IMG/VR virus record: IMGVR_UViG_643348551_000008
Span: 1 to 44,793 of that record
Source of the DNA: a virus
Taxonomy: Duplodnaviria; Heunggongvirae; Uroviricota; Caudoviricetes
Length of the DNA: 44,793 nucleotides
Reading direction: 5' to 3' (one strand)
Positions 19,316-36,807 of the stretch are shown one piece after another (positions within the stretch are counted from its first letter, which is position 1; the number at the start of each line of letters is the position of its first letter). A model generated the notes under the pieces. It worked only from the letters and a program-made list of their open reading frames with translations, was not told where the DNA came from and made no database searches. The position numbers and the translations under genes are program-made.

Positions 19316-22996
<3,681 letters not shown>

Positions 22997-23022
<26 letters not shown>

Positions 23023-23542
23023 TCAGCAACCCCGGTATCAGTTCATCCAGCGCGGCTGCTTTGTTCATGGCTTTGATGATATCCCGTTTCAGGAAATCAA
23101 CATGTCGGTTTTCCAGTTCCGGAAAACGCCGCTGCACCGACAGGGGGATCCCGTCGAGAATACTGGCAATTTCACCTGCGATCCGCGACAGCACGAAAGT
23201 ACAGAATGCGGTTTCCACCACTTCAGCGGAGTCTCTGGCATTTTTCAGCTCCTGTGCGTCGGCCTGCGCACGCGTAAGTCGATGGCGTTCGTACTCAATA
23301 GTCCCTGGCTGGAGATCTGTCTCGCTGGCCTGCCGCAGTTCTTCAACTTCCCGGCGCAGCTTTTCGTTCTCAATTTCAGCATCCCTTTCGGCATACCATC
23401 TTATAACGGCGGCAGAGTCATAAAGCACCTCATTACCCTTGCCACCGCCTCGCAGAACGGGCATTCCCTGTTCCTGCCAGTTCTGAATGGTACGGATACT
23501 CGCACCGAAAATGTCAGCCAGCTGCTTTTTGTTGACTTCCAT
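22997..23542 (-). CDS. nu1: Terminase small subunit Nu1
   Basis: 181-aa ORF MEVNKKQLADIFGASIRTIQNWQEQGMPVLRGGGKGNEVLYDSAAVIRWYAERDAE essentially identical to recalled lambda Nu1. Confidence 0.9.
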
Positions 23543-23735
23543 TGTTCATTCCACGGCCAAAAACAGAGAAAGGAAACGACAGAGGCCCAAAAGCTCGTTT
23601 TCAGCACCTGTCGTTTCCTTTCTTTTCAGAGGGTATTTTAAATAAAAACATCAAGTTACGACGAAGAAGAACGGAAACGCCTTAAACCGGAAAATTTTCA
23701 TAAATAGCGAAAACCCGCGCGCCTGCCGCCCCGTG
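23543..23735 (-). other. cos site (cosB/cosQ-like region, with cosN-equivalent 12-mer at 23720-23731)
   Basis: Minus-strand sequence upstream of Nu1 matches the recalled lambda left end almost base for base; the cosN-equivalent reads GGGCGGCAGGCG. Confidence 0.75.
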
Positions 23736-24148
23736 GAAGGCCTCCCCACCGGAAGGACCCACACAAATGAGAGCATTTATCATTAACATTTACAGATAAG
23801 ATGACGTACATCATTGAAACGCCATTCAGCCATATACCGGCAGCATTCGTAGTTGCACTCCGTAACTCTGCGACTAAGGTTAAAAACATGGCCCTCTTTT
23901 GCCACCGGCAAATCTTCAATGGATTTCCCCTGCCGGTTTTTTATTTTCGTCGATGCATAACATTGCATTTACATCAATAGCGGCTATTGTCATTAGTATG
24001 TTGCATCAATGCATGGGTGGTATTGGCGGTCTTCGCCGGCCGCTTCTGTGTAGCTGCTCCCTGTGACCGGTTTTTTATTTCTCACATTACAGCAACCCCT
24101 TAGAGTGAAGGGCTGCTGTAATGCCTGTTACTCAGTAACTACCGCACC

Positions 24149-24343
24149 TTACGGTAATTTCATGAAGGCAAATACCGGACAGTCCGGATGACGAGCATCT
24201 TCTGTTGCTTCCAGCATTGACTCACCAAACCACTCCGTCGTGGCGCGACCGTCAGCTGCTTTGTAGTGGATCAAGTACTGGTTTTCGCCATCCGCATACT
24301 GCGCACGGGCTTTAACCTCACCCCATTCATCACTGATGCGCAT
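24149..24343 (-). pseudogene. Hypothetical protein, apparently split by a frameshift in an A7 tract (strong SD plus ATGATG at 24424-24429 in another frame)
   Basis: 70-aa track ORF has only a TTG/internal ATG start; an SD-preceded ATGATG upstream joins this frame if the A-run 24415-24421 is one base shorter. Confidence 0.4.
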
Positions 24344-24599
24344 CTCCACCAGTTGAGACAACTCAAACTTAAACGGAGCAGCATCAGCACCAATTACAAT
24401 CGGTTTGTTTTCTGTTTTTTTCCATCATCGTCTCCTGATATCGAAGCCCGTCGCCGCACCGGGCACTGATCAACATTTGAGTATTCGCGGCGACAGAAAG
24501 AATTTATTTTATTGAATAGCCACTAACACAGAATTTCATGCTTTCCGGACGCTGGCGCACCCTTCATTTTTCAGCAAAATATTCCGCTATTACAGATGA

Positions 24600-24782
24600 T
24601 CAGTTCTGCAGACACTGCCGAACGCCATCGATAAGCTGGCAGACCTGAGAAGCCGTATCGAAAAGCTGGCGCGCCTTATCCAGGCTGACGCATCCCACCA
24701 ATAAAAAAGGCACCAGTATCGCTACCAGTGCCCATTTCGCCGCCGTTCGCGGCATTCTGTGTGTCCAGTGTTTTCTGCTCAT
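24600..24782 (-). CDS. Small membrane-anchored/lipoprotein-like protein (60 aa) in the spanin position
   Basis: MSRKHW... followed by hydrophobic KWALVAILVPFLLVGC (lipobox-like LVGC) and C-terminal Cys; AGGTG SD 4 nt upstream. Confidence 0.45.
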   Translation of the reverse strand: MSRKHWTHRMPRTAAKWALVAILVPFLLVGCVSLDKARQLFDTASQVCQLIDGVRQCLQN

Positions 24783-24796
24783 AACACACCTGGTTA

Positions 24797-25177
24797 TCAG
24801 CGTTTCAACTGAAAGTGAGGCCCGTCTTTCAGTGTTTTCCAGTCCCCACCCCATTCGATGGCAGTTCCCAGCTCTGCGGCAGCCTGCTTAAATGCCTGCG
24901 CGATTTTCTCGTACAGAGGCCAGTCCCATGACACCTGGCTGCCAATGTAGGCCACAACATCCACCGCATCACCTGTAAGGTGGCGGCTGTTCATGGTCTG
25001 GCTTTTCCCTGCCGCTACCAGCTGTTTCTGGCGATACTTACTGCGCAGACCTTCCGTGATACCAAAATCAACCTCCGTCAGCTCCAGCGCACGGCGAACG
25101 ACAGCAACCAGCTGTGGTTTGACGCCCTCCAGATTTTTTTCACTGCGACGGCTGAATCTGAATTTACCCGGCATCAT
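24797..25177 (-). CDS. Endolysin, peptidase M15 family (L-alanyl-D-glutamate peptidase-like)
   Basis: HxxGxAxD-like SRHLTGDAVDV and WGGDW...H motifs; directly after the holin-like genes. Confidence 0.65.
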   Translation of the reverse strand: MMPGKFRFSRRSEKNLEGVKPQLVAVVRRALELTEVDFGITEGLRSKYRQKQLVAAGKSQTMNSRHLTGDAVDVVAYIGSQVSWDWPLYEKIAQAFKQAAAELGTAIEWGGDWKTLKDGPHFQLKR

Positions 25178-25179
25178 AT

Positions 25180-25455
25180 TCACCTCAACAATGGAAAGAT
25201 TTTTGTGACGTTCCCGCGTGCGCGTATCACCAGCACGCAGAACAGCAGGTTAAAAAACACTTCCAGCCAGCCCGTTGCTAACGGGCGACCACACAGATAG
25301 CTGAGGGGCGCAAAGGCATACAGCAGCATCAGCAGCCAGGCCAGCCATGACATCAGCGGTTTGTGTCTGGAGTCACGACGACGATAAAAAAAGAGCGTCA
25401 GCACGATAACCGTGCATAACGCCACATTCAGCAATCCGGGAAGGTTACTTAACAT
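25180..25455 (-). CDS. Small integral membrane protein (91 aa), putative holin/antiholin component
   Basis: Two to three hydrophobic segments; GGAGG SD before ATG at 25455. Confidence 0.45.
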   Translation of the reverse strand: MLSNLPGLLNVALCTVIVLTLFFYRRRDSRHKPLMSWLAWLLMLLYAFAPLSYLCGRPLATGWLEVFFNLLFCVLVIRARGNVTKIFPLLR

Positions 25456-25837
25456 TGCCGCCTCCTCCACCCCGCAGGCGGGAGAACACACCGGACACCA
25501 GTGATGCAATATCCTGCTGGTGGATGAACGACAGAATCTTCACCGACACCACCGATACCAGCACCGCACACAGCGCATCTGCCGATGTACCGTCATACCC
25601 TGTTGTTGATGCAATCCAGGCTGACAGCACGCGCGCCCCCAGCACGCCGACGATAAACGACACCAAAAAATGCGCCACCACGCGCCAGACTGAAATCTTC
25701 TGCGGCATCGTTGCCACAAATAACGCCCCGGCGAACGCACCAAACACAATCCCGAAATCCGTTCCGGTAAACAGCCCGAATACCGTCGCCCCGCCGAGCG
25801 CCGCAGCCGTGCCGGAACCGGATAAGGGTTCAGACAT
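25445..25837 (-). CDS. Holin-like membrane protein (130 aa)
   Basis: Gly/Ala-rich hydrophobic helices with charged C-terminus; AGGAGA SD before ATG at 25837; upstream of the endolysin. Confidence 0.5.
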   Translation of the reverse strand: MSEPLSGSGTAAALGGATVFGLFTGTDFGIVFGAFAGALFVATMPQKISVWRVVAHFLVSFIVGVLGARVLSAWIASTTGYDGTSADALCAVLVSVVSVKILSFIHQQDIASLVSGVFSRLRGGGGGNVK

Positions 25838-25925
25838 ACTTTTTTCTCCTGTAAATAAAAAAGGGCCACCAGCGGCCCGTAAAAACACCCCGTCAAAGGC
25901 ACCCGCAGATGCCTTTTGTGTGGTG

Positions 25926-27178: not shown

Positions 27179-27253
<75 letters not shown>

Positions 27254-27256
27254 ATA

Positions 27257-27332
27257 TGGTGCCGACTACCGGAATCGAACTGGCGACCCGGTGATTACAA
27301 GTCAGTTGCTTTGTCTGCTAAGTTAAATCGGC
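27257..27332 (-). tRNA. tRNA-like gene, possibly tRNA-Thr (UGU) with imperfect stems (may be degenerate)
   Basis: Acceptor GCCGATT/AGTCGGC plus CCA and T-loop TTCGATT present; anticodon loop CTTGTAA but only 3 bp pair in the anticodon stem and the D-arm is atypical. Confidence 0.4.
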
Positions 27333-36149: not shown

Positions 36150-36807
36150 GACGCGCCTCCCGTTGATTACAGCGGAAAGCAGTGTGAGTCAGGCTGGTTT
36201 CGGCCTCATGAAATGCTTCAATACAGCTCTCGTAGTACCGCATTGTGCGCAGACTTAACCCAAGCTGAAGCATCATCAGACCATCAAGGGTGATGTAATA
36301 ACCACGCAGGGAATCGCCATACACGTGGTAAGTACCCGGAATGAAATTACGGGAGAAGAATTCACGTGAGCAGTTCAGATACTCGATTTTGTCGACGATG
36401 TTCTGGTGCATGCGCTTAAAGTGGCAGGCAACATGCAGGGAGAAAATAACAGCTTTGCCGTTGACGACTTCGATTTTCAGGTATGGGGAAGTTGGGACTG
36501 TAGCCATGATGGCAGCCTCCGTATGCAATGGATAACTTCCACCACCGGAGGTTCCAATCTCACTGGTGGTGAACTGGACAGGGTTGGAACTACCGGCGCA
36601 TACGGAAACCGGCGAGCCTTTCGGCTCCCCTGCCCAGCCCACCATAATTCTGGCGTGCGTGAGCGCGGACGATAAAAAAGACGCTGGCGCGTCATATATC
36701 GCCGTATGCAATTCCGGGGTTCCAATCCCGACACCCGCTTTATAAGGTGCCAGAACAGTGTAACGTCCCGAAATTGCAGAATCAATATTTAGGCTTGAAA
36801 CATTCAT
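36142..36807 (-). CDS. Hypothetical protein (221 aa)
   Basis: Long ORF in the early-right operon; no family recognised; start uncertain. Confidence 0.4.
   Translation of the reverse strand: MNVSSLNIDSAISGRYTVLAPYKAGVGIGTPELHTAIYDAPASFLSSALTHARIMVGWAGEPKGSPVSVCAGSSNPVQFTTSEIGTSGGGSYPLHTEAAIMATVPTSPYLKIEVVNGKAVIFSLHVACHFKRMHQNIVDKIEYLNCSREFFSRNFIPGTYHVYGDSLRGYYITLDGLMMLQLGLSLRTMRYYESCIEAFHEAETSLTHTAFRCNQREARHV

Follow-up and report, generated by a model that had tools for sequence, protein, structure and literature searches.

A one-base insertion in an A-run probably inactivates the conserved gene beside cos in prophage PP_SE11-5 of Escherichia coli SE11

Introduction

Why does the last open reading frame (ORF) before cos in a lambda-like prophage lie in two pieces? 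The window analyzed here is a stretch of 44,793 nucleotides (IMG/VR record IMGVR_UViG_643348551_000008, whole length). On its minus strand a Shine-Dalgarno (SD)-like sequence and two adjoining start codons open a frame of 14 codons, and a 70-aa ORF follows in another frame. An earlier sequence-only reading of the window had offered three explanations: a sequencing error, a pseudogene, or programmed or phase-variable expression. The second was favored by the present analysis. The +1 A frameshift in the A-run is very probably a real inactivating mutation, which would make this a null or strongly reduced allele and a young pseudogene. A sequencing error was found to be unlikely, and programmed or phase-variable expression was unsupported.

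Prophage PP_SE11-5 and Its Late Region

The window was identified as prophage PP_SE11-5 of E. coli SE11. The SE11 locus matched window positions 22649-25861 at 100% and window base 1 is genome position 2,122,554, where PP_SE11-5 begins. The A7 tract, at 24415-24421 in the window, is at 2,146,968-2,146,974 in AP009240.1. PP_SE11-5 is a lambda-like prophage of 44.8 kb integrated at yecE, and it has a 23-kb almost identical segment in common with PP_SE11-1 (Oshima et al. 2008, PMC2608844). E. coli SE11 (AP009240.1) was the only recorded source of the exact 70-aa product, and no second site with this product was reported.

The late region is encoded on the minus strand. It comprises, in order, a TerB-family gene, two holins, an M15 endolysin (24797-25183), the split gene, cos, Nu1 (TerS, 22997-23542) and gpA (TerL, 21097-23022). 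The split gene is the last ORF before cos, and the sequence-only reading was right to place the two side by side, with a lambda-like cos region 418 nt downstream of the stop codon. This region contains the 12-mer GGGCGGCAGGCG (23720..23731, minus strand), which is, from its likeness to lambda cos, the putative equivalent of cosN. The lambda 12-mer is GGGCGGCGACCT, and an exact copy of it was absent from the whole window. The cosB-like sequence beside the 12-mer, and Nu1 and gpA, were approximately 98-99% lambda-like. Two non-coding A6 runs lie between the gene and cos on the minus strand (24071-24076 and 23937-23942). Each is within a repeated AAATAAAAAACCGG motif which is followed by hairpin-like sequence. 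No sigma-70-like promoter was found in a scan of 23500-25300, so the scan gave no support for an independently transcribed moron. Terminator-like matches in the same scan were no more frequent than in shuffled sequence.

A number of other features were observed in the window. An ORF of 84 aa (24600-24854, minus strand) overlaps the 3' end of the M15 endolysin gene. In its product a hydrophobic stretch precedes a lipobox-like LLVGC, and the sequence matched phrog_7528, a family of unknown function. It may be a spanin-like lipoprotein. Rfam matches on the minus strand were IS009 (383-581), C4 antisense RNA (36562-36649) and isrK (36674-36750). Rfam also gave two tRNA-like genes at 27182-27332 on the minus strand, and ARAGORN predicted only a tRNA-Gly(TCC) at 27179-27253.

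Structure of the Split Gene

The minus strand was read directly. The SD-like sequence CAGGAGACG is located at 24429..24437 and was unchanged in five aligned relatives. It is followed by ATGATG, the start codons of the ancestral gene, of which the second ATG is the PGAP start in in-frame relatives. A single G (24422) separates ATGATG from the A7 run (24415..24421, plus-strand T7), which the tract states in relatives mark as the site of the +1 A insertion. The sequence-only reading had described an SD and ATGATG opening a frame that ends after 14 codons, and a T7 at 24415-24421. Both were seen as described, and only the position given for ATGATG (24424-24429) was off by one, the correct position being 24428..24423. 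The residual 14-codon frame, MMEKNRKQTDCNWC, occupies 24384..24428 and ends with TGA at 24386..24384. Only its first 4 residues are ancestral.

The body of the gene (24149..24424, minus strand) is in the +1 frame relative to ATGATG, as evidenced by the sequence, the alignment and the phrog_1935 profile. This frame is open from just past the TGA embedded in ATGATGG and encodes the conserved phrog_1935 core from PFKFEL on. The earliest canonical start in this frame is a TTG at 24361, located 22 nt downstream of the stop of the 14-codon ORF. It gives a 70-aa ORF (24361..24149) ending in TAA. No usable start was found in the body frame before the invariant residues F19 and F21. On direct reading no SD was visible before the TTG, or before the ATT codon at which a related allele has been annotated to start.

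Removal of one A in silico gave a continuous ORF of 92 aa. The two frames are therefore fused by the loss of one A, as had been proposed, and the product is longer than the 88 aa or so which had been estimated. The repaired N-terminus, MMEKTENKPIVIGADAAPFKFEL, was the same as that of the in-frame orthologues, and TENKPIVIGADAAPFK is a peptide of the full-length 92-aa protein. For the repaired product the match to phrog_1935 spanned profile positions 1-91 of 116 (E value 8.1e-55). The unrepaired 70-aa ORF matched positions 22-91 only, with an E value of 9.9e-44. As the repaired protein has the N-terminus of its orthologues and fits positions 1-91 of the profile, the split layout is not a chance arrangement. 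The 70-aa ORF is without profile positions 1-21, F19 and F21 included, and the frameshift thus removes needed sequence.

Two further changes were found in the window copy. A GAC codon (24182..24184, minus strand) puts D82 where the nearly invariant HPGCP motif has its glycine, and this was seen in the window copy only. G82 was nearly invariant, being present in at least 90% of aligned sequences. G82D was also the only SNP in 806 nt between the window and its nearest relative, L063. The second change is the TAA stop (24149..24151, minus strand), which the alignment places where most orthologues have GAA (E93). With this stop at codon 93 the protein loses G94, which is conserved, together with its C-terminal tail or domain. 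The stop is common to the window, the A5 copy L002 and the in-frame copy L056, and it is therefore older than the frameshift. The window copy shows apparent decay, with D82 at a nearly invariant glycine and closest relatives that are out of frame (A5) too.

Relationship to Phage phiP27 L33

The split gene is, by sequence and position, the orthologue of L33 of the Stx2e phage phiP27 (phrog_1935, unknown function). The gene DNA was 96% identical to phiP27 ORF L33 (CAC83551.1). L33 occupies the same place as the window gene, past a cassette of holin, holin and M15 endolysin and before cos and the terminase. The two differ at the tract, which is AAACAA and in frame in L33 and A7 and frameshifted in the window. 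L33 is 99 aa long from ATGATG, although its annotation begins at an ATG further upstream and gives 115 aa. The window copy ends at codon 92 and carries G82D. The position between the lysis cassette and cos or the small terminase is kept in phiP27 and E. coli prophages, and it holds with lambda-type Nu1 and with DUF1441-type small terminases.

The gene was present in about 150-215 RefSeq E. coli records and was always labelled "hypothetical protein." Homologues ranged in size from 83 to 131 aa and were found in prophages of Escherichia, Shigella, Salmonella, Yersinia, Enterobacter, Klebsiella, and Edwardsiella. In an alignment of 27 sequences the conserved core begins PFKFELSQLV, and F19 and F21 were invariant. 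The dN/dS between in-frame alleles was 0.12-0.37, which indicates that the full reading frame is under purifying selection. Judged from these comparisons, phrog_1935 / phiP27 L33 is a real, constrained protein-coding gene.

A number of C-terminal length forms were observed (131/132, 116, 99, and 92 aa). The 99-aa form is without the 96 bp encoding the second beta domain. The existence of several length forms indicates that this second, C-terminal domain is dispensable and often lost. The 116-aa and 99-aa forms were seen in L010, L004 and others, and L024 is a truncated copy of 38 aa.

The AlphaFold2 model had a pLDDT of 81, and the predicted fold of the core is an SH3-like beta-barrel. A Pfam search with the protein gave no domain match and a PDB profile search gave nothing at E <= 10. 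Foldseek against BFVD returned only uncharacterized small beta proteins with E > 0.001. The likeness to HspQ/YccV-like proteins and to other SH3/Tudor/KOW-like beta-barrels is one of fold alone, with no tie to phrog_1935 at the sequence level. No function can be transferred from this likeness as the fold is very common. The window gene is best described as encoding an accessory protein, small and conserved, that belongs to lambdoid and P27-like prophages.

The A-Run in Related Prophages

The scan pattern for relatives accepted any tract length. Among 68 IMG/VR loci the tract was A6 in 51, AAACAA in 14, A7 in two, and A5 in one. Nine metagenome contigs carried A6 (eight) or AAACAA (one), with no A7 or A5. 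An in-frame tract of 6 nt, either A6 or AAACAA, was present in 74 of these 77 IMG/VR and metagenome copies. No match to the tract-tolerant pattern was found in the contigs of species-representative genomes.

RefSeq tract lengths were taken from alignment spans and not from short BLAST queries (DUST masking of A7 was expected). Complete E. coli genomes in RefSeq contained 137 copies with at least 80% coverage, of which five were A7, at least three were A5 and approximately 129 were in frame. A 161-nt query centered on the tract gave exact A7 matches in five RefSeq records, and at least 55 were otherwise identical and one base shorter. Three RefSeq records were two bases shorter, corresponding to A5, and one of these was read directly. 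Overall approximately 94-96% of copies were in frame and 4-6% were out of frame.

The ancestral tract is, judging from these relatives, A6 at codons 3-5 (GAA AAA ACA). The orthologues have a single unbroken ORF with a 6-nt tract, which bears out the earlier proposal of one gene split by a +1 insertion in a homopolymer. The opposite arrangement, in which orthologues would conserve the 14-codon ORF and an independent downstream start, was looked for and was absent. The A-run itself is not conserved, as indicated by AAACAA, which interrupts it in approximately 20% of copies with the frame kept, by AAAAGAAA variants and by unrelated N-termini in other genera. The MEKKEDK variants have AAAAGAAA / GAAAAGAAAGAA at the tract. 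Salmonella and Yersinia homologues have other N-termini, and those of Yersinia begin directly before the FKFE motif.

Out-of-frame alleles recurred. A7 on the 131-aa background was found in five RefSeq genomes and in L025 and L031. L031 differed from the A6 copy L032 by the tract and 1 SNP over 2.1 kb, and over 1.6 kb around the gene it was identical to the A6 copies L013 and L032 apart from the tract. The further A7 copy L025 was 3 SNPs away. The A5 allele was identical in L002 (RefSeq EC21Z-048) and L063 (IMG/VR), and the alignment span of two more RefSeq genomes was 419 bases, as it was for L002, and this implies A5. The nearest relatives of the window are these A5 copies, and L063 is separated from it by 1 SNP in 806 nt. 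The 92-aa background comprised A5, the A7 of the window and one in-frame AAACAA copy (L056). The exact allele of the window (A7, 92-aa background, D82) was found in one record only. At least three independent changes in tract length would be needed to give these alleles: A7 on the 131-aa background, and A5 and A7 on the 92-aa background.

The tract had changed in length in 5 of 65 copies, compared to 0 of 34 and 0 of 39 for the two nearby non-coding A6 runs, these being small and phylogenetically dependent samples. The two non-coding runs are 340-480 nt downstream of the tract. A T6 run showed no length change in 21 relatives. A second length-variable A-run was observed at 25840-25845 on the minus strand (ACAGGAGAAAAAAGTATG), within the stretch that separates the first holin gene's SD from its ATG. 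It is A6 in the window, and in relatives it was A5 in 16, A6 in eight and A7 in one. This run alters the spacing from SD to start and affects no reading frame.

Origin and Effect of the Frameshift

One ancestral gene is located between the lysis cassette and cos. Replication slippage is the most likely origin of the extra A, and in PP_SE11-5 it would have added one A to the A6 at codons 3-5. Ribosomes starting from the SD and ATGATG would read 14 codons and then stop. The conserved body, in the +1 frame and without an SD-preceded start, would be left as a null or strongly reduced allele. The A7 allele would have lost both its expression and its function. The event is an ordinary one of a well-known kind. 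The tract is a recurrent indel site, and indels are tolerated in this dispensable gene. The recurrence would follow from a homopolymer within a gene which the phage can do without, and would reflect neither a recoding signal nor a contingency switch.

Alternative Explanations

The first alternative is that the A-run is a contingency switch between A5, A6 and A7, or that the A7 allele is leaky through a +1 slip of tRNA-Lys or the loss of one A in transcription. This is very unlikely. Codons 3-5 are a typical place for phase-variable runs, but the run is interrupted in approximately 20% of copies and in other family variants with the frame kept, and it forms no conserved device. The near-identical prophages L031 and L032 differ at the tract, the window is two tract units from its nearest relatives (A7 and A5), and the sampled relatives imply that the length changed independently at least three times. 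However, 94-96% of copies are in frame, and A5 and A7 have been inherited unchanged across several strains, which argues for slow and not fast switching. The two neighboring non-coding A6 runs never vary, and the excess of change at the tract over these runs could point to something beyond neutral decay.

If tRNA-Lys slipped +1 on AAA_A, the wild-type MMEKTENKP would be restored exactly, and a low level of leaky expression of the A7 allele may occur in this way. Against this, no rare or stop codon is present in the A site beside the Lys codon and the predicted downstream structure was unremarkable. The predicted RNA fold of 116 nt around the site had a z score of -1.76, and 12 of 200 shuffles folded as well. 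The site in the zero frame is A_AAA_AAC, which has the form of a -1 heptamer, and the body needs +1. A -1 shift at this site leads to TAA after 7 codons. As regards transcription, E. coli RNA polymerase shows no detectable slippage below 7 T or 8 A, which places A7 under the measured threshold, and deletion-type rescue was unseen on every poly(A) run tested (Koscielniak et al. 2018, PMC6260861). A7 is also shorter than the runs of approximately 9 nt from which selection against slippery sequence is visible in many bacterial genomes (Baranov et al. 2005, PMC1088944).

Comparison with known systems gave partial likenesses. In the "authentic frameshift" genes with 9A/9T, whose ORFs are regained through slippage during transcription, for example in IS elements (Baranov et al. 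2005, PMC1088944), the A-run is likewise exactly at the change of frame, and an mRNA losing one A would restore the window ORF too. The window run differs from these in being only 7 nt long and not conserved in orthologues. E. coli dnaX has A_AAA_AAG (-1) and the A_AAA_AAC of the window is of the same slippery form, but the window gene needs +1, nothing stood out as a stimulatory element in the fold prediction and the orthologues are in frame. Phase-variable genes resemble the window gene in having an A-run near the 5' end, and in the case of the window gene the population contains A5, A6 and A7. Compared to these the window tract is short, often interrupted and stably inherited, with off alleles at approximately 4-6%.

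Three specific mechanisms were unsupported. Programmed ribosomal frameshifting was unsupported on the grounds that the two-ORF layout is not conserved, with a single ORF in 74 of 77 copies and in approximately 94% of RefSeq copies, and that the motif runs in the wrong direction (a -1 motif where +1 is needed). Recoding by transcriptional slippage was unsupported as A7 is shorter than the runs on which E. coli RNA polymerase slips (8 A or 7 T at the least, and typically 9) and the run is not conserved. A phase-variable contingency locus was unsupported as approximately 20% of tracts are interrupted and out-of-frame copies make up only 4-6%, although A5, A6 and A7 were all present and the tract is thus polymorphic from strain to strain. 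A related reading is that the A-run is a low-rate reversible switch or a leaky +1 tRNA-Lys site and that A5 and A7 reflect selection on lysogens to silence the gene. This is highly unlikely. If true, the recurrence of A5 and A7 would be selected silencing of a conserved accessory gene and not neutral decay.

It is highly improbable that the true SE11 tract is A6, with the gene intact at 92 aa and an error in the record. The exact allele of the window is in one record only and A6 in frame is by far the commonest state elsewhere. However, out-of-frame alleles at this tract were repeated in independent genomes, which makes a real one here unsurprising. The window copy carries the damaging-looking G82D, and its nearest relatives (A5) have lost the frame too. 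Sanger chemistry is not known to be weak at runs of seven bases. The SE11 genome was finished by Sanger sequencing on the ABI 3730xl at 8x, with the use of Phred/Phrap/Consed, and its stated error rate was low (PMC2608844).

The last alternative, that there are two genes, a 14-codon leader peptide and a downstream ORF reinitiated at TTG 24361 or at ATT to give a shortened functional protein, is extremely unlikely, since the orthologues have one ORF, neither codon is preceded by an SD and the TTG product is without the invariant F19 and F21. In E. coli, initiation at ATT is very weak. For the A7 allele of ETEC E400634 (L003 2621-2989, NZ_CM128600.1) the PGAP annotation is a 122-aa protein that begins at ATT (WP_032303084.1) and not a pseudogene, but this start is an annotation device and is not evidence of initiation. 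Two points fit reinitiation: the Yersinia homologues start directly before FKFE, which makes the first 16 or so residues dispensable in principle, and the stop of the 14-codon ORF is 22 nt upstream of the TTG.

Conclusion

An inactivating +1 A mutation remains the favored explanation of the split gene. Its relevance goes little beyond annotation. The 70-aa ORF of SE11, like the 122-aa model that PGAP starts at ATT in some ETEC genomes, would be a remnant of a frameshifted gene of 92-131 aa. The family to which they belong, phrog_1935 / phiP27 L33, is constrained, has a predicted SH3-like fold and is widespread in enterobacterial prophages beside cos. Its A6 run is a modest natural case of an indel hotspot at which changes have recurred in a dispensable prophage gene.
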